The notes below the pieces were generated by a model. It did not search any database. It had not been told where the DNA came from and was given only the letters and a program-made list of their open reading frames with translations. 32,000 nt of DNA, taken from contig NZ_CACRUY010000011.1 in assembly GCF_902652685.1 (NCBI RefSeq), positions 38,562 to 70,561 on the forward strand. The letters are read 5' to 3'. This document shows, piece after piece, positions 13,217 through 32,000 of the stretch (its first letter is position 1; every line of letters starts with the position of its first letter). The stretch is from Mycobacterium sp. Marseille-P9652. GTDB lineage: Bacteria; Actinomycetota; Actinomycetes; Mycobacteriales; Mycobacteriaceae. The position numbers were made by a program, and so were the translations under genes.

Positions 13217-14653
13217 TCAGGTATCGAAAACTATTGTGCCGTAACCGGTCGGGCTGTACGACAGGTAGATCGGGTGCTGCAGGAACGGGGCGATCCCGGT
13301 GTTGAAGAACCCGCCGAGGGTGCTCGACGAGATGGCCGTCTGTTGGGAACCGACGGTGGTGGTGTACAGCAACTTGCTGCCGTCGCTGGTGTAGACGGCC
13401 ACGCTGGTTCCGGCGGGCAGGTATCCACCGGCGTTCGGCGGCCCGAGGTTGTCGGGCACCGTCCCGCCCAGCCCGCCGGAATCGATGTACGCGCCGGTGG
13501 TCTGCTGCAGTCCGCCGCCGTTGATCCGGATGTCCAGGGTGGTGATCGGCGCCCCGGTCACCGACGCGTATGGGGTCAGCGGGTTGGGGCCGAATTGCAC
13601 CGTTCCCGTGGGCTCGTCAATCAGCAGACCCTGACCGAAGGCGCCCGGCAATGCGGTCACGGGACTGCTCGCGGGACCGTAACCATTGGCCCCCACACCC
13701 AGAATGGCGGGCGCCTGGGATGCGGGATAGGAAAAGACGAAATTCTGGGTTATCGACGTGACGACGGCAATAGTGGTCGGCTGGGTGACAAGGCCGTTTC
13801 CGAAATTCACCGTTGTCGTGTACGTGTTGTAGTTCTCGACGAGCAAATTCCCCAATCCGCCGTAGGTGACGGACCCTTGCCCGGTGGGAGCGCCGAGGCT
13901 CGCGAGATTGACGTCCTGCGGGGGAAGGATCAGACCCCGTGATCCGGTGTCGACAATGACCGGCACGCTCGGTCCGCCGCCCACCGAGACGTTGACGTAC
14001 AGGTCCTGACCCTGCAGTTGCAGGGGCACGGTGGCCAACCCCAGCGGGCCGCTGGCCCCGGGGGACCCGAAAAGGCCGCCGGGGCCGCCGGGACCGCCGA
14101 GCGCGGCCGGGCCACCGGCCCCGCCGGGGCCGCCGTTGCCGATCAACCCCGCGGGCCCGCCGGCGCCTCCGGGCGCCCCGGCGGCGGTGCTGTTTCCGCC
14201 ATGGCCGCCGTTGCCCATCAGGATGCCGCCCGGACCACCGGGCGTGCCGACCCCCCGGGCGTTGGTGACGCCGTCGGCGCCGTCACCGATCAGCGGCCGC
14301 CCCAAAAGCATGTTGGTCGGCGCGTTCACGACCGCGAGGATGTCCTGCTGCAGGATCTGCAGCGGGTCGGCGCTGGCGGCCTCGGTCGCCGCGTACATCC
14401 CGGCGCCCGAATTCAGTGCCTGGACGAATTGCGTGTGCATTGTGGCGGCCTGAACGGCCAGCGCCTGATAAGAGGACGCGTACGCGGAAAAGATCGTCTT
14501 GATGGCTCCCGATACCTCGTCAGCCCCCGCCGTGAGTATTTCGGTTGTCGGTGCGGCCGCCGCGGCGTGCGCCGCGCCAATCCACGACCCGATGTTCGCC
14601 ACTTTTGTCGCCGCGTCGGACACGAATTCCGGCGCAGTGATCACAAAAGACAC
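13217..14653 (-). CDS. PE-PGRS family protein with C-terminal pepsin-like aspartic protease domain (PecA / PE_PGRS35 type)
   Basis: 478 aa, GTG start at 14653 with GGGAAGAGG upstream. The PE domain is [10 protein letters not shown]...AAADEVS-like. A Gly-rich GGxGG linker covers residues about 121-205. Catalytic motifs are VIVDTGSRG (D235) and AYIDSGGLG (D391). Confidence 0.9.
14039..14293 (-). repeat. PGRS-type low-complexity GGC/GCC-rich coding repeat inside the PE gene
   Basis: Encodes [61 protein letters not shown]. The DNA is reiterated GGNCCNCCNGG units. Confidence 0.8.
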
Positions 14654-16394: not shown

Positions 16395-17255
16395 TCATTC
16401 GGGCCGGGTTAACCCCAGTGGTCCGGCCAGTTCACTCAGCGCGCTCAGCAGGGTGCCTTCGTCCCAGCCGCCCACCACCTGGATCGCGACGTGGTCGGCG
16501 CCGGCCTCGTGATGCTGCGCGAGGCGCCGCGCGACCGCCTCCGGGGTGCCGTGGGCGACGACCGCATCGACCAGCCGGTCGCTGCCGGGCTTGCGCACGT
16601 CGTCCTGCGTGAACCCCAGCCGCAGCCAGTTGTTCACGTAGTTGGCGAGGTCGAGGTTGAGTTGCAGTTGGTCGCGCCCCAACGCGCGGGCCCGCTCGGC
16701 GTCGGTCGTCACGATCACCTTGTGCTCCGGCGCAAGGAACACCGCGTCGCCGACCAATTCCCGCGCCTTCGCGGTGTGTTCCGGGGTGGTCAGGTAGGGG
16801 TGGGCGCCCGCGGAGCGTTCGGCGGCCAGCCTGAGCATCTTCGGGCCGAGCGCCGCCAGCACCCTGCGGCTCGTCGGAATCCCGCGGACGTCCAGCTCGT
16901 CGAGGTACCCGACCACGGCGTCGTACGGCTTCACGTAGGCCTGGTCGACCTCGCGGTGGCCGGCGCCGACGCCCAGCAGGAACCGGCCCAGGTGGGCGCT
17001 TTCGATGCGCGCGAACGAGTCGGCGACGGCCGGGGCGGGCGCGGACCAGATGTTGAGGATCCCCGTCGCCAACTGCAGCGAGGTCGTGCGTTCCAGCGCC
17101 GGCTCCACCCACGCCAGGTCGGCGTCCGGTGACGCGCCGATCCAGACCGCGCCGTACCCGAGCGACTCGATCTTTGCCGCCAGCTCCGGCGTGACCGACC
17201 GGGTGGGCAGCCACACGCCGAACCGGCCCAGGTCGGGCTTGAGCGACACGGTCAC
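16395..17255 (-). CDS. LLM-class (luciferase-like) F420-dependent oxidoreductase, Rv3463-like, copy 2
   Basis: Track ORF 16395..17987 trimmed to the GTG at 17255, which overlaps the upstream stop (GTGA). The 286-aa protein VTVSLKPDLGRFGVW...GAHPYLTTPEHTAKAR... is a paralog of the upstream gene. Confidence 0.85.
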   Translation of the reverse strand: MTVSLKPDLGRFGVWLPTRSVTPELAAKIESLGYGAVWIGASPDADLAWVEPALERTTSLQLATGILNIWSAPAPAVADSFARIESAHLGRFLLGVGAGHREVDQAYVKPYDAVVGYLDELDVRGIPTSRRVLAALGPKMLRLAAERSAGAHPYLTTPEHTAKARELVGDAVFLAPEHKVIVTTDAERARALGRDQLQLNLDLANYVNNWLRLGFTQDDVRKPGSDRLVDAVVAHGTPEAVARRLAQHHEAGADHVAIQVVGGWDEGTLLSALSELAGPLGLTRPE

Positions 17256-18094
17256 CGAAGCCCCAGCGGGCCCGCCAGCTCGGCCAGGGCCGAGACCAGG
17301 TTCTCGTCCTTGGTGAGGACCTGCACGGGGACGTGGTCGGCGCCGGCGTCGAGGTGTTCGTTCAGCCGCGCGGCGATCTGGTCGGGGGTGCCGTAGGCGA
17401 CGACGGAGTCGACCAGCCGGTCGCTGCCCGGACGGGCGACCTCCTCGTCGGAGAAGCCGAGCCGCTTCCAGTTGTTGCGGTAGTTGGCCAGGTTGAAATA
17501 GATGTCGAGCGCCCTGCGGCCGACCGCCCGCGCCTTCTCGGGGTCGGTGGTCAGGACGACCTTGTGCTCGGGGGCCAGGAATGCCGACGGACCGATCAGC
17601 GCGCGGGCCCGCGCGGTGTGCTCGGGCGTGGTCAGATAGGGGTGCGCGCCCGCGGCACGCTGCGCCGAGAGTTTGAGCACCCGCGGCCCGAGGGCGGCCA
17701 CGACGCGCCGGTGGGCGGGGACCCCGTATTCGTCCAGCTTGTCGAGGTACTCCACCAAGGCGTCGTAGGGCTTGCGGTACTCGCTGTGGGCCTCGGGATG
17801 GCCGACGCCGATGCCGAGCAGGAAACGGCCCGGGTACGCCCCGTCGATGCGGTGGAACGACTCGGCGACCGGGCCCGCGGCCGCCGTCCAGATGTTGACG
17901 ATGCCGGTGGCCACCTGCAGCGTGGTCGTCGCCTCGAGGAGTGGCTCGACCCAGGCGAGCTCGGCGGGCGGCGAACCGCCGACCCACACGGCCCCGTAGC
18001 CCAGGGACTCGATCTCTTTGGCTTGCTGGGGCGTGACGCCGCGTCCGAACGATCCGAACCGGCCGAGGTTGGGCTTGCTGGCTGCATCCGTCAT
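17252..18094 (-). CDS. LLM-class (luciferase-like) F420-dependent oxidoreductase, Rv3463-like, copy 1
   Basis: Track ORF trimmed to the ATG at 18094 (MTDAASKPNLGRFGSFG...), giving 280 aa. It shares long colinear blocks with copy 2 (LGYGAVW.G, AELAWVEP, GRFLLG.G.GH, AGAHPYLTTPEHTA.AR, FLAPEHKV, LANY.NNW.RLGF, PGSDRLVD.VVA.GTP). Confidence 0.85.
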   Translation of the reverse strand: MTDAASKPNLGRFGSFGRGVTPQQAKEIESLGYGAVWVGGSPPAELAWVEPLLEATTTLQVATGIVNIWTAAAGPVAESFHRIDGAYPGRFLLGIGVGHPEAHSEYRKPYDALVEYLDKLDEYGVPAHRRVVAALGPRVLKLSAQRAAGAHPYLTTPEHTARARALIGPSAFLAPEHKVVLTTDPEKARAVGRRALDIYFNLANYRNNWKRLGFSDEEVARPGSDRLVDSVVAYGTPDQIAARLNEHLDAGADHVPVQVLTKDENLVSALAELAGPLGLR

Positions 18095-18123: not shown

Positions 18124-19608
18124 CTATTCCTCGGCGGGCGTCAGCTCCAGGGGCAGCAGAACGATGAAGCGGGTGTCGCCGGGCGCCGATTCCACGCGCA
18201 GGTCGCCGCGGTGTTTCTTGACGACGATGTTCCACGCCAGGTCCAGCCCGAGGCCCGTGCCTTCCCCGACCGGCTTGGTGGTGAAGAACGGCTCGAAGAT
18301 CCGGCTTCGGACGTCGTCGGGGATTCCGGGTCCGGTATCGCAGATCTCGACGCGCGCCATCTTTTCGCCGTCGCGGCGGGTCCGGATCGTCAGCGTGCCG
18401 CCCTTTGAATCGGGACCGGCGCCCATCGCGGCGATCGCGTTGTCGATGATGTTGGTCCACACCTGGTTGAGATCGCCGGGGTAACAAGGGATCTGCGGCA
18501 GTGAGGTGTCGAACTCCTTCACCACCGCGATGGCGGCGTCTTTTCGTGCGTGCGGGCCGATCCGGTCGGCGAACATCGTGAGCGTGCTGCGCAACAGGTC
18601 GTGGACGTCGGCCACCTGGAACGGGGCGCGGTCCATCTGCGAATACTGCTTGGCGTCGGCCACCAGCGCCGAGATCCGCTTGCTCGCCTCCAGGACCTGG
18701 TTCAGCAGCAGCTCACCTTCGACGGTGTAGGTCAGCCAGCGGATGGCCTTCTCCAGTGAGGTCGACGCGCCCATCTCCTCGGTCGCCGCCGCGATGCGTT
18801 CGAGCCAGTCGGTGTCGATGCCGCCCTCGACGAACGTCGGCGCGATGTCCCACCCGCCCTCGATGCCGTGGTCTTCGAGCCATTCCCCGACGGCGTCCTC
18901 CCGGTCGGCCGTCTCGATCGCGCTCAGGTTCGCCGACGCCGACTTGATGACCTGGGCCGCGACCTCCTCCTGCAGGCGCACCAGCGCCCGCAGCGCCTCC
19001 GGGGTGACGGTCCCGTCCGCGAGCATGGCGAGCTTCTGGCGCATGCCGGCGACCCGCTCCCGCAGCTCGGCCGCGGCCCGGACCGTGGCGGCGGCAGGGT
19101 TGTTCAGCTGGTGGGTCAGCCCGGCGGACAGCTGGCCCAGGGCGAGCAGTTTCTCCCGGTTGCCGATGATCCGCCGCGTGCGCTCCTGACCGACCGCCAT
19201 GCCGTCGAGCAGGTGAACGGCCATCGGGAACTGGTCCTTCATGAAGCGGGCGAAGGCCGGCGCGTCGAGCACGAAGAACCGCGACGGCTTGGTGACGTAC
19301 ACCGTCGCGTCGTAGCTCTGGTGTTCCGACTGCCCGGTGAAGGCCCGCCAGGCGCCGCAGTAGACGCCGCGCTGCGAGGTCCGGTTGGTCTCGATCTCCT
19401 GGCCGCCGGAGAGCTTGGACATTGCCAGCTCGCCCTCGATGAGGACGTAGAAGCACGTCGCGGGTTCGCCCTCGACGCAGATCGGGCCGGGCTCGTAGTG
19501 CTGGATGTGCCCGCTGGCGCACAACTCCCCGAGCTGCTCGTCGGTGAGGGCCTCGAAGAGGAACAGGCTGCGCAGCTCGCCGGGATCGCACGGCTGTGCG
19601 GTGGTCAT
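18124..19608 (-). CDS. Sensor histidine kinase with N-terminal cyclic-nucleotide-binding-like domain (soluble)
   Basis: Track ORF 18124..20910 trimmed to the ATG at 19608, which overlaps the upstream stop (ATGA 19605-19608). 494 aa. The CNB-like beta-roll is LFLFEALTDEQL...FYVLIEGEL. Kinase motifs are H-box LSAGLTHQLNNP (H166), N-box QVWTNIIDNAI, G1 ICDTGPGIP, F-box IFEPFFTTK and G2 GTGLGLDL. No TM segment is seen. Confidence 0.9.
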   Translation of the reverse strand: MTTAQPCDPGELRSLFLFEALTDEQLGELCASGHIQHYEPGPICVEGEPATCFYVLIEGELAMSKLSGGQEIETNRTSQRGVYCGAWRAFTGQSEHQSYDATVYVTKPSRFFVLDAPAFARFMKDQFPMAVHLLDGMAVGQERTRRIIGNREKLLALGQLSAGLTHQLNNPAAATVRAAAELRERVAGMRQKLAMLADGTVTPEALRALVRLQEEVAAQVIKSASANLSAIETADREDAVGEWLEDHGIEGGWDIAPTFVEGGIDTDWLERIAAATEEMGASTSLEKAIRWLTYTVEGELLLNQVLEASKRISALVADAKQYSQMDRAPFQVADVHDLLRSTLTMFADRIGPHARKDAAIAVVKEFDTSLPQIPCYPGDLNQVWTNIIDNAIAAMGAGPDSKGGTLTIRTRRDGEKMARVEICDTGPGIPDDVRSRIFEPFFTTKPVGEGTGLGLDLAWNIVVKKHRGDLRVESAPGDTRFIVLLPLELTPAEE

Positions 19609-21272
19609 GATTCGGCGAGGTAGCGGTGCACGAGCATGACGGCCATGGAGCCCTCGCCGACCGCGGCCGCCACCCGCTTGGCCGACGACGAGCGCACGTC
19701 GCCGGTGGCGAACACCCCGGGCACGCTGGTCTCCAGGTGGTGGGGCGGCCGGTCCAGGGTCCAGCCGCAGACGTTGCGCAGATCGGGGCCGGTGAGGATG
19801 AACCCGCGCTCGTCGCGCGCGACCACCCCGTCGAGCCAGTCGGTGCGCGGCGCGGCGCCGATGAAGATGAACATGCGGTCGCACGTGACGTCCTCGGTGT
19901 CGCCGGTGCGGTTGTCGACCAGGGTGAGCTTCTCGAGGTGCTCGGTGCCGGTGGCGCACTGGACCTCGGTGCAGGTGCGGACGGTGATCTTCGGGTTCCG
20001 CTCGATCTGCTGGATCAGGTAGTAGGACATCGACGCCTCCAGCGAGGCGGCGCGGACGACGATCGTCACCGACTTCGCCTCGCGGGACAGGTGCATGGCG
20101 GCCTGGCCGGCCGAGTTGGCGCCGCCGACCACGAACACGTCTTCGTCCCTGCACTCCGAGGAGATGGACGTCGCAGCGCCGTAGTAGACGCCCTTGCCGG
20201 TCAGTTCCTCGCAGCCGGTCGCCGCCAGCTGGCGGTAGGCGACACCGGTGGCCAGGATGACGGCGTGCGCGTCGATGGAGCCGCCGTCGGCGAACCGCAC
20301 GGTGCGCGCGGACCCGTTGACCTCGAGCGCGGTGGCGGTGCGCGCGGTGATGAGCTCGGCCCCGAACTTCTCGGCCTGCCGGCGCGCGCGGTCGGCGAGC
20401 TGGCCGCCCGACAGCCCGTCTGGGAAGCCCAGGTAGTTCTCGATCCGCGAGCTCTGGCCGGCCTGGCCCCCGGTCGCGGTGCGCTCGATGAGCACCGTGC
20501 GCAGGCCCTCCGACGCGCCGTAGACGGCTGCGGCGAGGCCGGCGGGGCCGCCGCCGATGACGACCAGGTCGTAGAAGTCCTGCGACGGCGTGGTGGTCAG
20601 GCCCAGCGTGTCGGCGAGTTCGGCGTCGCTGGGTTCGACCAGCGTGGTGCCGCGTTCGGTGACGACGACCGGCAGGCGCAGGCCGTCCTCGCCGGCGGCC
20701 TGCAGCAGCCGCTGGCCCGCGGGATCGTCGGACATGAACCAGGTGTAGTAGAGCCCGTTGCGGGCCAGGAAGTCGCGGACCTGCCAGGACCGCGCCGACC
20801 AGCGGTGCCCGATCACCTTGGTGTGCGGGATGGGCCGTTCGGGCGTGCGCCGCCAGGCTTCCAGCAGCGCGTCGACCACCGGGTAGAGCTTTTCCTCGGG
20901 CGGGTCCCACGGCTTGAGCAGGTAGTGGTCGAGGTCGACGACGTTGATCGCGTCGATGGCGGCGTGGGTGTCGGCGTAGGCGGTCAGCAGGATGCGCCGC
21001 GCCGCCGGGTAGAGGTCCATCGCCTGCTCGAGGAACTCGATTCCCGTCATCTGCGGCATCCGGTAGTCGGCGATCAGCGTCGCGACCGCCTCGCCGCGCA
21101 GCTTGAGCTCCTTGAGGGTGTCCAGCGCCTCGGGCCCGGATTCGGCCCGCACGATCCGGTGGTCCTCGCCGTAGTGGCGGCGCAGGTCGCGGGCCACGGC
21201 CCGGGACACCGAGGGATCGTCGTCGACGGTCAGCATGACGGGCTTGCGGGGCTGTCCAGCGGGATTCGTCAT
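19605..21272 (-). CDS. Fused response-regulator receiver / glutaredoxin-like linker / thioredoxin-reductase-like FAD-dependent pyridine nucleotide oxidoreductase
   Basis: 555 aa.
- REC domain: acidic pocket LTVDDDPS, phospho-acceptor IADYRMP (D69), LLTAY (T97), YLLKPW (K120).
- TrxR-like part: FAD motif DLVVIGGGPAGLAAAVYGA, TGGQAGQSSRIENYLGFP, second Rossmann motif VFVVGGANSAGQAA, and GVFATGDVR.
- Where TrxB has CATC, the sequence reads GVYYGAATSISSEC (nt 20151-20192). Confidence 0.9.
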   Translation of the reverse strand: MTNPAGQPRKPVMLTVDDDPSVSRAVARDLRRHYGEDHRIVRAESGPEALDTLKELKLRGEAVATLIADYRMPQMTGIEFLEQAMDLYPAARRILLTAYADTHAAIDAINVVDLDHYLLKPWDPPEEKLYPVVDALLEAWRRTPERPIPHTKVIGHRWSARSWQVRDFLARNGLYYTWFMSDDPAGQRLLQAAGEDGLRLPVVVTERGTTLVEPSDAELADTLGLTTTPSQDFYDLVVIGGGPAGLAAAVYGASEGLRTVLIERTATGGQAGQSSRIENYLGFPDGLSGGQLADRARRQAEKFGAELITARTATALEVNGSARTVRFADGGSIDAHAVILATGVAYRQLAATGCEELTGKGVYYGAATSISSECRDEDVFVVGGANSAGQAAMHLSREAKSVTIVVRAASLEASMSYYLIQQIERNPKITVRTCTEVQCATGTEHLEKLTLVDNRTGDTEDVTCDRMFIFIGAAPRTDWLDGVVARDERGFILTGPDLRNVCGWTLDRPPHHLETSVPGVFATGDVRSSSAKRVAAAVGEGSMAVMLVHRYLAES

Positions 21273-26549: not shown

Positions 26550-27185
26550 CTAGACCTTGCCAGCGACGAACTTCGCGGCCTGGTTCGTCAACCCGGGGAC
26601 GTAGCCGAGGTGCGCGCTCCACTGCGTGCCGTTCGAGCAGATCGGGTCGCCCGTGTTGCACAGGTCGATGGTCTTCCCGTCGAAGTTCGGGGTCAGGGCG
26701 CTCATCAGCCCGCCCGCGCGGGTGGACGGATTGCCGAAGAGGGCGACGGCGGCCACGTGGTCGGCGGCGTCGGCGGGCAGGGGCTGGCGGAAGCCGAGGC
26801 CGGGAAGCGGTGACGCGGTGACGATGTCGACGACGGCCGCGCCCTGCGAGTAGCCGCCCAGCACCTCCTTGGTGTTCGGGCAGTTGCGGGCCATCTGCTG
26901 CACGTGGTTGCTCGCGTCGTTCGCCCCGTCGGTGGCGGCCAGGAAATCCTTGCTCGCCGGGTAGTTGACCGCATACGAACCCACGCTCTTGCGGGTGTTC
27001 TGGCGCAGCGAGCTGACGAACGCCTGACCGACCTTTCCGACGCCGGGCGGCTCGTCGGTTCCGCGCGCGAACACCACCTCGACGTCGGGGCACGACGCCG
27101 AGGCCAGCGGCATCAACTTGGGGACGACGAACAGCGCCACCGCCACGAGCAGCGCGGCGGCCAGCCCCAGCCGGATCAGCCTCAC
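26550..27185 (-). CDS. cut4: Secreted cutinase-family serine esterase
   Basis: 211 aa, GTG start. Signal peptide MRLIRLGLAAALLVAVALFVVP...ASA, CPDVEVVFARGTDEPPG, nucleophile GGYSQGAAV, and C-terminal D...H (GDPICSNG...SAHLGY). The symbol is assigned from synteny with M. tuberculosis eccB4-cut3-cut4 (from memory). Confidence 0.85.
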   Translation of the reverse strand: MRLIRLGLAAALLVAVALFVVPKLMPLASASCPDVEVVFARGTDEPPGVGKVGQAFVSSLRQNTRKSVGSYAVNYPASKDFLAATDGANDASNHVQQMARNCPNTKEVLGGYSQGAAVVDIVTASPLPGLGFRQPLPADAADHVAAVALFGNPSTRAGGLMSALTPNFDGKTIDLCNTGDPICSNGTQWSAHLGYVPGLTNQAAKFVAGKV

Positions 27186-27237
27186 ACCACGAGGCTATGG
27201 GCCCTTGATACGCGAATGATCAAGCGGCGGTAACGAT

Positions 27238-28092
27238 TTAGACCAGCGGAGCCTGCGGCGCGGGCGTGCTGGGCACGTTGGGTGCGGGCACCGTGGGGCC
27301 GCTGCCGGGCGTCTGCGGTGCATAACCCGGGTTTTGGGGGCCATTACCCGGCGTCTGCGGACCGGTGCCGGGCATCTGCGGGGCGTACGCCGGCGTTTGC
27401 GGTCCGTATCCGGGCACCTGCTGGCCGGAGCCGGCCAGCAGCTTGGACGCGACGAACTTGGCCGCCTCGGTGGTGTAGACGGGGACGTATCCCTCGGTGT
27501 GCCCGGTCCACTCGTTGCCCTGACCCGCGTGGCAGATCGGGTCTTGTGGGTTGCACAGGTCGATCGCGTTGGCGCCGAGCAGCGCGCTCTGCGTGGGCAG
27601 GGTGCCGCCGGCGCGGTCGGCGACGTCACCGAAGGTGGCGACGGCCGCGATGTTGCTGGCGTACTGCGGCGGGAGCGAGTTGCCCCAGTTGATGCCTCCA
27701 ATGGGCACGCCGGCCACGATGTCCATCACCGATGCGCCCTGTGAGTAGCCGCCCAGCACGATCTTGGTGTTCGGGCACTTCTCGACGCTCTTCTTGACGC
27801 GGTCGATGGTGTCGTTGGCGCCGTCGCCGCCGTGCAGCTGCAGCTTGCTGGCGGCGTAGTTCACCCCGTACGGCAGGATGTTCAGGCCCGGGGCCTGCTG
27901 GCGCAGGGAGTCGACGAACGCGTCCCCGACCCGCCCGAGGCCGGGCGGCTCGTTGGTGCCGCGCGCGAAGATGACCTCGACGTTCGGGCAGTCGTCGGCC
28001 GAGGCCGTTGGTGCCGCGACGGGGGTGACGAGGGCGGCGGCGGCGAACGCGGCGCTCGTCAGGCCGACCCAACGACCGGCTGACCGCGCCAT
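27238..28092 (-). CDS. cut3: Secreted cutinase-family serine esterase with Pro-rich heptad-repeat C-terminal tail
   Basis: ATG at 28092 ([32 protein letters not shown] signal). The track start is a GTG at 28140. Motifs are [26 protein letters not shown] and DPICHAG...TGHTEGY. The tail is (PGxGPQT)n. Confidence 0.85.
27241..27414 (-). repeat. Degenerate 21-nt (7-aa) tandem coding repeat, about 8 units
   Basis: Encodes [56 protein letters not shown]. On the plus strand, GTCTGCGG-like cores recur at 27311, 27353, 27374 and 27394. Confidence 0.8.
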
Positions 28093-28198
28093 ACCCTCTC
28101 GAGGGCCCCCCCGTGGGCCACGTGTCCGCTGAAGAGTCACCCCGAGATCTTAACCGCAGGTGGCGGGGACCGAAAATTCGCTGACCTGTGGATAAGCG

Positions 28199-29602
28199 GT
28201 GCCGGCCCAGCGGGCAGCGCCCTACCGTGGGCGAAAGATCAGCAGATCAGGGGGGTCCGTGCCGCGTCCGCCGTCCGTTTGGCTGCAGGTCTCGGGCTAC
28301 CGGTTCCTGCTGCGTCGCCTGGAGGCGGCGTTGCTGACCGGAGACGCGAGCGCGCCCGTGCGGGGGCGCTCGGCGGCCCTGGCGTTCGGGTACCTGGTCG
28401 CCGCCCTCGCCGCGGCGGGCTGCGCGCTGCTGGCCGTGCTGCGCCCGCATCCGGCGTTCGCGCAGGAGCGGCTCGTGATGACGCGAGAATCCGGCGCGCT
28501 GTACGTGCGGGTGGGCGACACCTGGCACCCAGTGCCGAACATTGCCTCGGCGCGGTTGATCGCCGGGGCCGACCTGAACCCACGGCCGGTGCGCGGGTCG
28601 GACCTGGCCCGTACGAGGCGCGGACCGCTGCTCGGCATCCCCGGCGCACCGGAGTTCCTCGGTGCCCCGCTGTCCGGGGGCGAGTCTGTGTGGACGATCT
28701 GTGACGCAGACGGGGTGACGACGGTGGTCGCCGCCCCGGCCGTCGGTTCGCCGGCCGGGGTCCTGGCTCCCGACGCGGGCGTGCTGGTCGCGCCGGTGTC
28801 GGGCTCGCCCACCTATCTGCTCTACAACGGGCTGCGGGCCGTCGTGGACCTGGCCGACCACTCGGTGGTGCGGGCCCTGCGGCTCGAGGGCAGGGCGCCG
28901 AGGCCGGTGTCGCAGTCGTTGCTCGACGCCGTTCCCGAGGCGCCCGCGATCGCGGCGCCTCGCGTGCGAGACGCGGGGCGCCCGGTCGCCGGTTTGCCGG
29001 GGTTCGCGGCAGGGAGCGTGCTGCGCATCGCCCGGGCCGACGGCGACGAGTATTACGCCGTGCTGACCGGGGGCGTCCAGCGCATCGGCCAGGTGGCGGC
29101 CGACATCCTGCGCTTCAGCGACTCGCGGGGCACCGCCGGCGCGACCACGGTGGCGCCGGATGCGATTCGGGCCATTCCGACGGTCGACTGGTTGCCGGTC
29201 GGGACCTTCCCCGACCGCCCACCCATGCCGGCGCGGGCGGGCGGCGTCGTCTGTGCCGCGTGGGGCCCATCGGGTGTCACGTTGCTGGCGGGTGGCGAAC
29301 CGCCGCTGCAGCCGGGCCAGGCCCCCGTCGCGCTGGCGCAGGCCGACGGGCGGGGCCCGGCGCTCGACGCCGTCTACCTGCCACCCGGCCGCAGCGCCTA
29401 CGTCCGCGCGGGCGGGATCCGCTTCCTCATCATCGACACCGGGGTGCGGTTCGCGGTCCGCGACGACGAGGACGCGCGCGACCTGGGCCTGCCGGCGCCG
29501 CTGCCCGCGCCCTGGCCGGTGATCGCCGCCCTGCCGTCCGGGCCGGAACTGAGCAGGCAGGGCGCGTCAGTCGCGCGCGACGCCGGCGGGGTGCCGCCGT
29601 AA
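28199..29602 (+). CDS. eccB4: ESX-4 type VII secretion system core component EccB
   Basis: 467 aa from the GTG at 28199. An alternative GTG at 28259 follows AGGGGG. It has the EccB signature VWLQVSGYRFLLRRLEAALLTGD followed by a TM helix (ALAFGYLVAALAAAGCALLAVL) and a large extracytoplasmic domain. Its neighbours are mycP and eccD. Confidence 0.85.
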   Translation: MPAQRAAPYRGRKISRSGGSVPRPPSVWLQVSGYRFLLRRLEAALLTGDASAPVRGRSAALAFGYLVAALAAAGCALLAVLRPHPAFAQERLVMTRESGALYVRVGDTWHPVPNIASARLIAGADLNPRPVRGSDLARTRRGPLLGIPGAPEFLGAPLSGGESVWTICDADGVTTVVAAPAVGSPAGVLAPDAGVLVAPVSGSPTYLLYNGLRAVVDLADHSVVRALRLEGRAPRPVSQSLLDAVPEAPAIAAPRVRDAGRPVAGLPGFAAGSVLRIARADGDEYYAVLTGGVQRIGQVAADILRFSDSRGTAGATTVAPDAIRAIPTVDWLPVGTFPDRPPMPARAGGVVCAAWGPSGVTLLAGGEPPLQPGQAPVALAQADGRGPALDAVYLPPGRSAYVRAGGIRFLIIDTGVRFAVRDDEDARDLGLPAPLPAPWPVIAALPSGPELSRQGASVARDAGGVPP

Positions 29603-30835
29603 TCGACGGGCGCCTGAGCAGGCCAGCAGCACCAGGAGGCAGACGCCCGCGCCCCGCAGGGCGACGCGCCGGGACCCGGGGCCCCGGGGGCCGGGCGGTG
29701 CCGGTGTGGTGATCGGCACGGGCGCCGGCGTGGACGTGGCGGCGGGTGGCGGCGACCCGGTGCTGACCGCGGCCACGGCGTCGACGGTGCCGTGACCGAC
29801 CAGCGGATCGCGCCCGGTGGTCGCGCGGTGGGCCGTGGACTCGATGCGCCGTATCACCTGGCGGGCCGTCAGGGCGGGGAGGCGGGCACGGATCAGCGCC
29901 GCCAGTCCGCTCACCACGGGTGCGGCGTAACTGGTGCCGGACACCGGCGGCGAGCCGAGCGGCGTGACCCCCTCCCCGGGGGCGGCGACGTCCACCCAGG
30001 GGCCGGCCAGGGTGAAGGCCGACGGGGTGCCGTCCGCGCCGACGGATCCCACCGTCAGCACGTAGTCGTCGTACCAGGCCGGGCTGACCGCGACCGTGAC
30101 CGTGTCCCAGGTGGCGCCCGGCCGCTGGGGCGGGCACGGCGCGGAGCCGCCGGCGTTGCCGGCCGTGTTGCCGGCCGGCGCCACCACGACCGCGTTCTTG
30201 ACGTCGACGGCGTAGGCCAGCGCCGCTCCCAACGCGCGGTCGTCCAAGCCGGCCGCGGCGCACGCCACCGTCGAGATGTTGATCACCGAGGCGCCGAGGT
30301 CGGCCGCCGTCCGGACCGCCTTCGCCAGGGTGTCGACGTCGCCGACCCCGGTGTGGGACGGGTCGCTGGCCGGGGCGAATCTCGCGCTGGACTGGCGGAT
30401 GCTCAGCACGGTCGCGTCGGGCGCGGTCGCGGCGATGACGCCGGCGACCAGCGTTCCGTGCGCGTCGCAATCCTGCGTGCCGTCGCCGGTCGACACGAAA
30501 TCGCCGCCGGCCACCACATCGGGCAACCCGCGATGCCGGGCGACGCCCGTGTCGATCACCGCCACCCTTTGCCCGGCGCCGCGGGTGAGTTGCCAGGCGC
30601 GCGACAGGTCGGGGGAACCGGCGACCCCGTTGCCGGCCGGTGGCGCGTCGGCCGGCAACGGGGCGCACGCCTCGCGCTGCACTGTCGGCCATGGCGGCGC
30701 CGGCGCGGCGGGCCGGGGCAGCCATCGGTCGTCGATCGCGGGCGGCGAAACCGCCTGCGCCACCGGCGTTGTGCACTGCGACAGCGCCGCGACGGCCGTG
30801 ACGATCACGAGCCGCACGGCGCGCGTCGCTGTCAC
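29567..30835 (-). CDS. mycP4: ESX-4 mycosin (membrane-anchored subtilisin-like serine protease)
   Basis: Track ORF 29567..31834 trimmed to the GTG at 30835, which overlaps the eccD4 stop (GTGA). Signal peptide VTATRAVRLVIVTAVAALSQC...AQA. Catalytic residues are VAVIDTGV (D), DAHGTLVAG (H) and SGTSYAAP (S). There is a Pro-rich linker and a C-terminal TM anchor VCLLVLLAC. Confidence 0.88.
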   Translation of the reverse strand: MTATRAVRLVIVTAVAALSQCTTPVAQAVSPPAIDDRWLPRPAAPAPPWPTVQREACAPLPADAPPAGNGVAGSPDLSRAWQLTRGAGQRVAVIDTGVARHRGLPDVVAGGDFVSTGDGTQDCDAHGTLVAGVIAATAPDATVLSIRQSSARFAPASDPSHTGVGDVDTLAKAVRTAADLGASVINISTVACAAAGLDDRALGAALAYAVDVKNAVVVAPAGNTAGNAGGSAPCPPQRPGATWDTVTVAVSPAWYDDYVLTVGSVGADGTPSAFTLAGPWVDVAAPGEGVTPLGSPPVSGTSYAAPVVSGLAALIRARLPALTARQVIRRIESTAHRATTGRDPLVGHGTVDAVAAVSTGSPPPAATSTPAPVPITTPAPPGPRGPGSRRVALRGAGVCLLVLLACSGARRLRRHPAGVARD

Positions 30836-32000
30836 GGCGGGCCGAATCCGCGCACGGCGGCGTAGATTCCGCAAATTTCGAAGGTCAACGGCACCGTCGC
30901 GACCAAGGCCGACCACTCCAGCACCTCGGCCGCTCGGCCGGCGAGCGGTGACGTCGTCGGGGCAACGAACCCCAGGCCCATCGCGGCGGCGGCCAGCACC
31001 GCGGTCGCGGCGGCGACTAACGGTCCACGATCGGTGGCATGTGCGGCAGACACCGCGAATGTCGTTGCGATGACGGCGGTTCCGCCCACGACGAACACGA
31101 CGGCGCGCCTGATGTCCGCGCCGCGGGACCGGAGAAGCAGAAGCGCCCCGGTGAGGACACCGAAGGCGATGCAGCTCAGGCACGGGGCGCCGGCGAGAAC
31201 GGTGGCGACGGCCGCGGCGGCGGCTGACGCGCCGAAGGCCGCGAGCAGGACGGTGAGCCAGCGGTCGGCGCGCCGCGCCGCGGCGTGCACGCCGGGCCCG
31301 ACGCTCCCGGCGTCCAGGCGCGGCGACAGACCGGCCAGCATGATCGATACCCGGCCCGCCGCCCCGAGCAGGCCGAGGCACGCGAGCGTGGACACCGACG
31401 CGATCGTGCGCAACGGGGCGCCGGTGATCGCGCCCGCCAGCGTCGCGGCCGCGACGATGACCGACAGGCACGCGACGGCGCTGAGCGTGACGCCACCGCG
31501 GCCGCCCGCGAGCGTCGCCAGAACCGCGGTGGCGGCGGCCGCCGACGCGGCAAGCGCCGAGTGGGCGACATCGGGCGGTCCCGGCACGGCGAGAACTCCG
31601 GCGACCGCGGCGAACAGGACGGCAAGGATGTTCAGCGCGAGCGCGGCCGCCCGGTCTCGGCATGACCGCTGCGCGATCGCCGCGCCGAGCAGGGCAGCGG
31701 TCGCGGCCGCCGCCGCGATGGCCGCGGTAATCGCGTTGTGGCTCAGCGCGTTCAGCCCCAGCACCATGCCACCGACACCGGTCAGGCACGCCGCCGCGGT
31801 GGCGCGGGCGAGCCGCGACTGGGCGCTGCCCCACGGCCGGGCCACGCCCGCGAGCGTCGCGGACACCGCGCCGGCCGGGTCGTGGTGCCGTGGGACGGCT
31901 TGCGGGGCGGGCCCGGGGGCGAGCACCAGGATGTCGCCGTCCCGGATCTCGTTGTCGGACAATGTCGTCGCGGCGTCCATCGCCGGATCGCCCAGCCGGG
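30832..32000 (-). CDS. eccD4: ESX-4 secretion system membrane channel component EccD (5' end outside the window)
   Basis: Polytopic membrane protein with many Ala/Leu/Gly-rich TM helices. The frame stays open upstream of the M at 31980 (..RLGDPAMDAATTLSDNEIRDGDILVL), which looks like the end of the EccD ubiquitin-like domain. The true start therefore lies beyond nt 32000. Confidence 0.8.
   Translation of the reverse strand, partial: RLGDPAMDAATTLSDNEIRDGDILVLAPGPAPQAVPRHHDPAGAVSATLAGVARPWGSAQSRLARATAAACLTGVGGMVLGLNALSHNAITAAIAAAAATAALLGAAIAQRSCRDRAAALALNILAVLFAAVAGVLAVPGPPDVAHSALAASAAAATAVLATLAGGRGGVTLSAVACLSVIVAAATLAGAITGAPLRTIASVSTLACLGLLGAAGRVSIMLAGLSPRLDAGSVGPGVHAAARRADRWLTVLLAAFGASAAAAAVATVLAGAPCLSCIAFGVLTGALLLLRSRGADIRRAVVFVVGGTAVIATTFAVSAAHATDRGPLVAAATAVLAAAAMGLGFVAPTTSPLAGRAAEVLEWSALVATVPLTFEICGIYAAVRGFGPP

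Follow-up and report, generated by a model that had tools for sequence, protein, structure and literature searches.

The 32,000-nucleotide window analyzed here (positions 38,562 to 70,561 of contig NZ_CACRUY010000011.1, Mycobacterium sp. Marseille-P9652) encodes on its reverse strand a response regulator with a flavoprotein output module and, directly downstream, a soluble histidine kinase. The coordinates of the regulator in the open reading frame (ORF) list are exactly those of an initial annotation made from the sequence alone. The identical RefSeq entry is named 'FAD-dependent oxidoreductase', and the kinase is named 'ATP-binding protein' and overlaps the regulator gene by 4 bp. One regulator copy (P0001, 543 aa) begins at Met13, and window positions 21237-21272 (-) encode the extra amino-terminal stretch of the 555-residue form. 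The longer start, which is the RefSeq choice, is favored because a K-P-V sequence before Met13 is conserved in homologues. The features of the two genes and their neighbors are collected in Table 1.

Table 1. Positions of the regulator, kinase, and adjoining features in the window.
Feature	Position	Strand	Basis
Response-regulator/flavoprotein gene, WP_156687300.1	19605..21272	-	555 aa + stop; ORF list, Pfam, NCBIfam, exact-sequence look-up
Receiver (REC), residues 11-141	20850..21242	-	Pfam 14-125; AlphaFold2 (beta-alpha)5 fold; PDB receiver matches 2rjn, 6swl
Acidic pocket D17-D18-D19	21216..21224	-	Codons checked; conserved in kinase-linked orthologues
Phospho-acceptor Asp D69 (IADYRMP)	21066..21068	-	Codon checked; orthologue alignment
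T97, conserved Thr at end of beta4	20982-20984	-	Codon checked; orthologue alignment
K120-P121, end of beta5	20910..20915	-	Codons checked; orthologue alignment
Glutaredoxin-fold adaptor, residues 150-223, no Cys	20604..20825	-	AlphaFold2 topology; Foldseek; weak GST-N match
S159-A-R-S162 at glutaredoxin CxxC position	within 20787-20801	-	Register inferred from secondary structure
cis-Pro P201 of adaptor	20670-20672	-	Invariant in alignment
Low-Mr TrxR-type FAD/NAD(P)H module, residues 233-555	19608..20576	-	Pyr_redox_2; TIGR01292; 7jyp, 5uth; Foldseek
FAD-binding GxGxxG, G240-G-G-P-A-G245	20538..20555	-	Invariant, 65-sequence family alignment
CxxC position, reads G365-A-A-T-S369	20166..20180	-	HMMER alignments to 7jyp (CAAC), 5uth (CATC)
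C374, only semi-conserved Cys; corresponds to Cys376 of ATII-TrxR	20151..20153	-	Orthologue alignments; PMC6544261
NAD(P)H dinucleotide motif G383-G-A-N-S-A-G389	20106..20126	-	G383, N386 invariant; S387-A392 nearly invariant
V406-R-A-A-S-L-E412 in place of HRRxxxR, then M415-S-Y-Y-L419 ('MSxYL' insertion)	20016..20057	-	Alignments
GD motif G524-D525	19698-19703	-	Invariant, 65-sequence family alignment
Soluble histidine kinase gene, WP_156687299.1	18124..19608	-	494 aa + stop; start overlaps regulator stop (ATGA, 19605-19608)
Kinase CRP/FNR-type (cNMP_binding-like) sensor, residues 1-140	19189..19608	-	Pfam 6e-09; DNR best solved relative
Predicted phospho-accepting His166, LSAGLTHQLNNP H-box	19111..19113	-	Codon checked; H-box shared with orthologues
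Two tandem luciferase-like (LLM) oxidoreductase paralogues	16395-18094	-	29 nt past kinase; mutual stop/start overlap

Receiver and adaptor domains of the regulator

Pfam detected Response_reg at residues 14-125 (8.5e-14) and Pyr_redox_2 at residues 234-541 (3.6e-36). The E-values indicate that these sequence matches are not due to chance. Nothing was found between the two domains, and the Pfam scan returned no DNA-binding domain, which bears out the initial view that there is no DNA-binding output. The NCBIfam model TIGR01292 aligned end to end with residues 234-552 at 223.8 bits, under its cut-off of 343.45. An AlphaFold2 model of the whole regulator, computed with the family alignment as input, had a predicted local distance difference test score (pLDDT) of 93.3 and a predicted template-modeling score (pTM) of 0.89. 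A REC domain, a Cys-free glutaredoxin-fold domain, and a low-Mr thioredoxin reductase (TrxR)-type FAD/NAD(P)H module are thereby confirmed as the three parts of the protein.

An exhaustive HMMER scan of the family yielded 150 representatives with 36-75% identity, invariant columns were taken from an alignment of 65 sequences, and gene neighborhoods were scanned at 80 loci, with one genome per species. Spurious alternative-frame clusters arising from ORF clustering in the high-GC loci were discounted.

The receiver scored 52.1 bits against PF00072 (cut-off 30.2), and its model forms five β-α units across residues 12-141. Its closest relatives are the receivers of the RpfG/HD type (2rjn; NF053512, 4.5e-29). 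The initial annotation judged the receiver intact from its DDD pocket, D69, T97, and K120-P, and the codon check and the alignment agree: D17, D18, D/E19, D69, T97, K120, and P121 are kept in 39 of 39 alignable kinase-linked orthologues, two of which have Glu at position 19. L137 and W140 at the end of receiver helix α5 are conserved in the family alignment. Roughly half of the distant representatives at 50% identity lack D69, and receivers without a neighboring kinase are degenerate, with T97 replaced by Val or Ile, the acidic pocket lost, and D69 replaced by Glu. Such pseudo-receivers without an adjacent kinase occur at L039, L040, L041, L054, L057, L061, L064, L066, and L067 and in many of P0128-P0263.

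The segment between the receiver and the flavoprotein gave no significant match in Pfam or PDB sequence searches when used alone, and the one weak match was to the glutathione S-transferase amino-terminal (GST-N) domain; its fold was resolved only by structure prediction. In the AlphaFold model, residues 151-222 adopt a β-α-β-α-β-β-α topology with pLDDT >90, and the segment modeled alone reached 90.7. The Foldseek neighbors of this model were exclusively glutaredoxin, NrdH, mycoredoxin, or GST-N folds. The top match was cGrx1 (7c10), with TM scores of 0.72/0.84 and a root mean square deviation (rmsd) of 1.7 Å, and further neighbors were NrdH (4fiw), mycoredoxin-1 (Mrx1, 2lqo), archaeal glutaredoxins, GST N-domains, and the glutaredoxin domain of human TrxR3 (3h8q). 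There is no Cys anywhere in residues 150-223, and an SxxS (S159, S162) occupies the CxxC position of glutaredoxins in the register suggested by secondary structure. The initial proposal of a roughly 75-residue thioredoxin/glutaredoxin-like linker lacking CxxC thus stands in its fold and its lack of Cys; its dimensions are amended to about 73 residues (150-223), with W158 as the conserved Trp.

The flavoprotein module

The nearest solved relatives of the module are low-Mr thioredoxin reductases, 7jyp (7.7e-47) and the M. smegmatis enzyme 5uth (9.7e-45), with AhpF next, whereas TrxR-type ferredoxin reductases score far weaker (1e-16 to 1e-18). Together with the Pyr_redox_2 and TIGR01292 alignments, this upholds the initial assignment of a full low-Mr TrxR-type module. 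The regulator shares its two-domain fold with the TrxB enzymes of M. smegmatis (5uth), T. africanus (7jyp), and E. coli (1tde) at about 30-34% identity and keeps their GxGxxG, GGQ, GxGxxA, and GD motifs. The corresponding GxGxxG, GGQ, G-G-x-N-S-A-G, and G-D elements are invariant or nearly so in the family alignment. The regulator differs from low-Mr TrxB in having no CxxC, one Arg of the HRRxxxR motif, an 'MS' insertion, an invariant Tyr364, and the amino-terminal REC and glutaredoxin-fold domains.

HMMER alignments place the CAAC or CATC of the solved reductases opposite G365-A-A-T368 or, one residue on, A366-A-T-S369, and neither stretch contains a Cys. No CxxC was found among all of the 150 representatives covering the site, where the family consensus is G-x-G-V-[YF]-Y-G-A-x-x-x-E-A, or in 48 aligned full-length genomic orthologues. 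The absence of the catalytic dithiol, noted initially for this one protein, is a property of the family. Y364, just before the CxxC position, is invariant. The H-R-R-D-x-F-R of TrxR aligns with V406-R-A-A-S-L-E412, in which R407 is the sole survivor of the three Arg residues, so the reported loss of HRRxxxR was also correct. Across the family this region reads V-x-l-v-R-G-x-x-L-x-x-x-M-S-x-Y-L and contains a family-specific two-residue insertion.

The regulator has six Cys residues (354, 374, 434, 439, 464, and 502), and only the position of C374 shows conservation. Of the 39 kinase-linked orthologues, about 30 have Cys and about 9 have Tyr there, and distant members usually have Met, Leu, or Phe. 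On the helix that carries the CxxC position, C374 is found about 6 residues farther along, and this spacing of nearly two helical turns means that it is probably not at the flavin.

Thioredoxin reductases in the flavin-reducing (FR) state have the nicotinamide site turned toward the flavin. The model of the module superposes on FR-state structures, with a TM score of 0.95 and an rmsd of 2.2 Å for the L. lactis enzyme 5mh4; it also matches 3cty, 3r9u, and the NADP complex 5usx, and the TrxB structures in this state fit at 1.6-2.9 Å. The fit to the flavin-oxidizing (FO) state of the L. lactis enzyme was poor (5mjk, TM 0.64, rmsd 7.6 Å). An enzyme without a disulfide would not need the FO state, and an FR-like conformation is predicted from the model.

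The partner kinase, gene neighborhoods, and family variants

No membrane segment was detected in the kinase. Pfam identified cNMP_binding at residues 42-125 (PF00027, 36.2 bits versus a cut-off of 27.5) and an intact HATPase_c at 379-488, and the H-box reads LSAGLTH166QLNNP. The H-box of orthologous kinases reads AHELNNP, and some of them have HisKA matches. The regulator and kinase are predicted to form a cytoplasmic two-component system. The best solved relative of the sensor is DNR (9.6e-11; 2z69/3dkw about 1e-10), a haem-binding, NO-responsive regulator of the CRP/FNR family. In an alignment with E. coli CRP, the Glu and Arg positions of CRP that bind the cyclic nucleotide phosphate read CGA and YDA in the kinase sensor, so that the canonical pair is not evident, and both residues also appear to be replaced in the relatives described below that carry a fused cNMP_binding domain. 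A role as cAMP receptor was not adopted for the sensor on the missing residues of the phosphate-binding cassette and the best solved match to DNR. An LPFSRM motif at the phosphate-binding site is common to the kinase orthologues of Bacteroidota, Acidobacteriota, and Gemmatimonadota.

The kinase core is encoded directly next to the regulator in 40 of the 43 loci with a canonical receiver, and two of the three loci that lack it are cut short by contig ends. The initial annotation had suggested surveying this co-occurrence across Actinobacteria, and the pairing extends well past them: paired loci span Actinomycetota, Chloroflexota, Cyanobacteria, Acidobacteriota, Bacteroidota, Gemmatimonadota, Verrucomicrobiota, and Burkholderiales. 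The kinase gene is placed upstream of the regulator in Bacteroidota and Gemmatimonadota and at the Chloroflexia locus L038, and downstream of it in Actinomycetota, Cyanobacteria, Acidobacteriota, Verrucomicrobiota, Burkholderiales, and the majority of Chloroflexota. Of eight partner kinases tested from distant phyla, seven combine cNMP_binding with HATPase_c and one carries REC instead. A partner kinase that has REC where the others have the cNMP-like sensor is encoded in one Chloroflexia locus (L038, 4446-5864). The synteny and the conservation of kinase-linked receivers lead to the prediction that the receiver is a working phospho-acceptor and the neighboring kinase its dedicated partner.

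REC is the regulatory domain ahead of the glutaredoxin-like and flavoprotein core in most family members. A sister class has cNMP_binding fused directly to the core in place of REC (P0200, P0241, and P0243) and has no neighboring kinase. It is represented among loci L043-L080, by matches that begin at about query residue 145-153, and at L081 (4001-5632), from C. metallidurans CH34. Other arrangements were also seen. P0127 (714 aa) adds a carboxy-terminal cNMP_binding domain to REC, glutaredoxin-like, and flavoprotein domains, P0226 (707 aa) carries carboxy-terminal EF-hands on the core, and of two proteins of about 700 aa, P0135 has SnoaL_2 and REC and P0137 has SnoaL_2 with no REC detected by Pfam.

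A small Cys/His-rich zf-UBP (PF02148) protein of 84-120 aa is encoded by an adjacent gene in 18 of the 80 loci, in both the REC-fused and the cNMP-fused classes. Examples are L003 9118-9486, L004/L005 9107-9460, L007 9200-9562, L015 9124-9378, L017 3497-3751, L044 7283-7546, and L052 7308-7574. The gene is absent from the window and from the other mycobacterial loci (three mycobacterial loci in all). Its recurrence makes the zf-UBP protein a candidate that may be a partner or acceptor of the flavoprotein. No substrate gene is conserved with the regulator across the loci.

The two LLM genes downstream of the kinase may be co-transcribed with the pair, and rmlB and then rmlC lie beyond them. infA and the rpsM-rpoA-rplQ-truA cluster are upstream of the regulator and divergent from it. 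The LLM genes and infA were rejected as parts of the module, their adjacency being seen only in mycobacterial loci (the others are L001 and L002). The window is presumably the counterpart of the M. tuberculosis Rv3448-Rv3465 neighborhood, with the kinase-regulator pair inserted beside infA. Elsewhere in the window, 13217-14653 (-) encodes a PE-PGRS protein with PE, PGRS-repeat, and carboxy-terminal aspartyl-peptidase-like (PF20729) domains. The stretch at 26550-31980 (76% G+C) carries two cutinase genes followed by ESX-type eccB (+), subtilase mycP (-), and eccD (-), and we take it to resemble the M. tuberculosis ESX-4 neighborhood.

Proposed function and relation to known enzymes

The reading favored here, with confidence evenly balanced for and against it, is that the regulator is a phosphorylation-gated NAD(P)H:acceptor flavoenzyme, as opposed to a disulfide reductase of the classical kind. 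The activity of the kinase would be set by a ligand, which need not be cAMP, and the kinase would phosphorylate D69. The phosphorylated receiver would alter the packing of REC, through L137 and W140 of α5, and of the glutaredoxin-fold adaptor on the flavoprotein or its dimer, and this change would switch an NAD(P)H-dependent oxidoreductase on or off. The flavin would then pass electrons directly to an acceptor, in the manner of a diaphorase or ferredoxin reductase, with no dithiol involved. The cNMP-fused sister class would be this switch in one-component form. It had been suggested at the outset that a flavoenzyme, and not transcription, is under the control of phosphorylation; the suggestion is strengthened because of the 4-bp overlap with the kinase gene, the adjacency in 40 of 43 loci, and a sister class with a ligand-binding domain in the place of REC, and control by phosphorylation itself is still inferred.

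Response regulators of the CheB, PleD, RpfG, and RsbU types likewise use REC to control a fused enzyme instead of DNA binding; their outputs are a methylesterase, cyclase, phosphodiesterase, and phosphatase, and the output here is a redox flavoprotein. The TrxR-type ferredoxin/flavodoxin-NADP+ reductases (YumC type; 2zbw, 3ab1, and 5xhu) have the TrxR fold without CxxC, and their flavin hands electrons straight to an external acceptor, as proposed for the regulator. The G-x-G-V-[HY]-Y motif with which the NADPH domain begins is presumably also common to them and the regulator. They differ in having no regulatory domains, where the regulator has REC and the adaptor, and their similarity to it is weak. 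AhpF, NTRC, and TGR/TrxR3 resemble the regulator in having a thioredoxin- or glutaredoxin-fold domain covalently joined to the reductase, and AhpF aligns over 515-559 columns. Those enzymes have CxxC or Sec centers in both partners and use the thioredoxin-fold domain as the immediate acceptor, whereas the two domains of the regulator lack these Cys residues; no AhpC-like partner is encoded near the regulator.

The architecture is not new. Censuses of response regulators already catalogue REC-TrxB proteins under the type 'TrxB' (PMC5847659, PMC9953108). The label that the initial annotation named, 'fused response regulator/thioredoxin-disulfide reductase', is carried in NCBI/UniRef by homologues at 88% identity (P0093 and P0107). 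The literature searched reports no substrate, signal, or phosphorylation effect for this class. The regulator is a further member of a known, functionally near-unstudied family.

The only biochemistry in the family comes from ATII-TrxR, a 552-residue, FAD-containing dimer with Crp/cNMP (13-146) and TrxB (234-522) domains that is 87% identical to a C. metallidurans protein (PMC6544261). The initial statement that no function had been defined experimentally therefore holds for the REC-fused members, and the wider family has this one assayed enzyme. Its Km values are 5.2 μM for NADPH and 4.2 μM for NADH, and it reduced DTNB with a kcat of 5.6 per s (PMC6544261). Its authors assigned it to the high-Mr TrxRs and, from a model, put forward Cys206-Cys223 and Cys376-Cys467 as its redox centers; no cyclic nucleotide was tried, no Cys mutants were made, and the missing CxxC was not discussed (PMC6544261). 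In the C. metallidurans CH34 homologue at L081, which is 44% identical to the regulator over residues 165-554, the site reads GVYYWASPVEAKLC and contains no CxxC. The domain coordinates and Cys residues of L081 match ATII positions 206, 223, and 376 at an offset of 28, and L081 may be the accession cited in PMC6544261. Like the regulator, the ATII-TrxR/C. metallidurans class has the glutaredoxin-like and CxxC-less flavoprotein core, including the GVYY...EA..C and VRG..L...MSxYL motifs. It differs in its CRP-like domain in place of REC, the lack of a partner kinase, and the extra Cys residues at 206 and 223.

Several observations weigh against the favored flavoenzyme reading. Neither a ferredoxin nor a flavodoxin gene is conserved in the vicinity of the regulator. 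The protein stops one residue past the last helix of the model (534-554) and lacks the carboxy-terminal extension that covers the flavin in YumC-type enzymes. With one of the three 2′-phosphate Arg residues left in the sequence, the preference for NADPH or NADH is uncertain, and the FR state of the AlphaFold model may be a modeling bias. Among the papers listed by full-text literature searches, there was no experimental study of any REC-fused member, and a S. coelicolor proteomics paper had no bearing on the family. Finally, ATII-TrxR is reported to reduce thioredoxin with a kcat of 28 per s in an insulin-coupled assay (PMC6544261), and this activity, if real, means that some thiol chemistry survives without CxxC. 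The assay follows NADPH at 340 nm, and the available text describes no minus-thioredoxin or Cys-mutant control (PMC6544261). What can be carried over to the family is cofactor use and diaphorase-like DTNB reduction, and the thioredoxin claim cannot be generalized without such controls.

It is unlikely, though worth weighing, that the main role of the flavoprotein module is to sense or to offer a platform for interactions, and not to act as a turnover enzyme. The module would read the NAD(P)H/NAD(P)+ ratio or the flavin redox state and, together with phosphorylated REC, control the binding of a partner such as zf-UBP or the lifetime of the phosphorylated receiver as a redox-gated phosphate sink. 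The reductase and the thioredoxin-fold domain have both lost the disulfide, but conservation of the cofactor sites is strict, no substrate gene travels with the regulator, zf-UBP recurs beside both classes, and the many pseudo-receivers without a kinase are as expected for scaffolding or sensing. Against this role, NAD(P)H turnover by ATII-TrxR with DTNB runs at several per second (PMC6544261), and mycobacterial loci, including this one, lack the zf-UBP gene. In response regulators generally, signal runs from the kinase to REC and on to the carboxy-terminal domain, and a sensor module would depart from this rule.

Rather unlikely is a regulator that remains a thiol/disulfide reductase for thioredoxin, mycoredoxin, mycothiol disulfide, or a dedicated partner, working through a non-canonical Cys such as C374 and tuned by phosphorylation. 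A single redox-active Cys that works through a mixed disulfide is used by CoA-disulfide reductase, YpdA, and NADH peroxidase. C374 is retained in most kinase-linked orthologues and in many cNMP-fused members, the module is nearer to TrxR/AhpF (1e-47) than to TrxR-type ferredoxin reductases (1e-17), and, like AhpF and TGR, the protein has its thioredoxin-fold domain on the amino-terminal side of the reductase. C374 also corresponds to Cys376, a proposed redox center of ATII-TrxR, for which reduction of DTNB and thioredoxin is reported (PMC6544261), with the insulin assay open to the reservation given above. Nevertheless, about 9 of the 39 kinase-linked orthologues have Tyr at this position, most representatives at 50% identity have Met, Leu, or Phe, and C374 probably lies away from the flavin. 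No second Cys is conserved (354, 434, 439, 464, and 502 are not), and the regulator has no Cys at the ATII 206/223 positions or in the glutaredoxin-like domain.

A decaying fusion, in which a dead TrxB paralogue sits on a receiver with no selected function, would account for the lost catalytic Cys and NADPH-specificity motif, but it is excluded for practical purposes because of the conservation of the family (over 150 clusters at 50% identity, conserved along their full length, and 28 invariant plus 54 nearly invariant columns, including the family-specific Y364 and MSxYL), with kinase synteny over eight or more phyla and an intact ORF translationally coupled to the kinase gene also against it.

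A broader extension of the flavoenzyme reading, offered as speculation and unlikely, treats the kinase-REC and directly fused versions as two wirings of one ligand-gated, disulfide-less, TrxR-derived flavoenzyme, a signaling output not described before that would turn a small-molecule signal into electron flow. The CRP/FNR-like domain would sense this molecule, perhaps a cyclic nucleotide or haem/NO rather than cAMP, and electrons would go to a dedicated acceptor, perhaps zf-UBP.

Members of this large family occur in many phyla, with environmental mycobacteria, Nocardia, and Streptomyces among their hosts, and the kinase-linked ones have a dedicated soluble kinase. The database name 'thioredoxin reductase' is almost certainly wrong for the family in the classical sense, and 'FAD-dependent oxidoreductase' is uninformative; its only published 'TrxR', ATII-TrxR, belongs to a class without the TrxR active site (PMC6544261). 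The analysis raises specific questions: how D69 phosphorylation affects NAD(P)H:acceptor activity, what C374 does, which ligand the kinase binds, and whether zf-UBP is a partner. To our knowledge, nearly every response regulator whose role is understood acts on transcription, c-di-GMP turnover, chemotaxis, or protein phosphatases. If a receiver does gate a redox flavoenzyme, it would link a phosphorelay directly to electron flow or NAD(P)H balance, and the two wirings, if true, would define a 'redox-output' branch of two-component signaling with its own partner protein.

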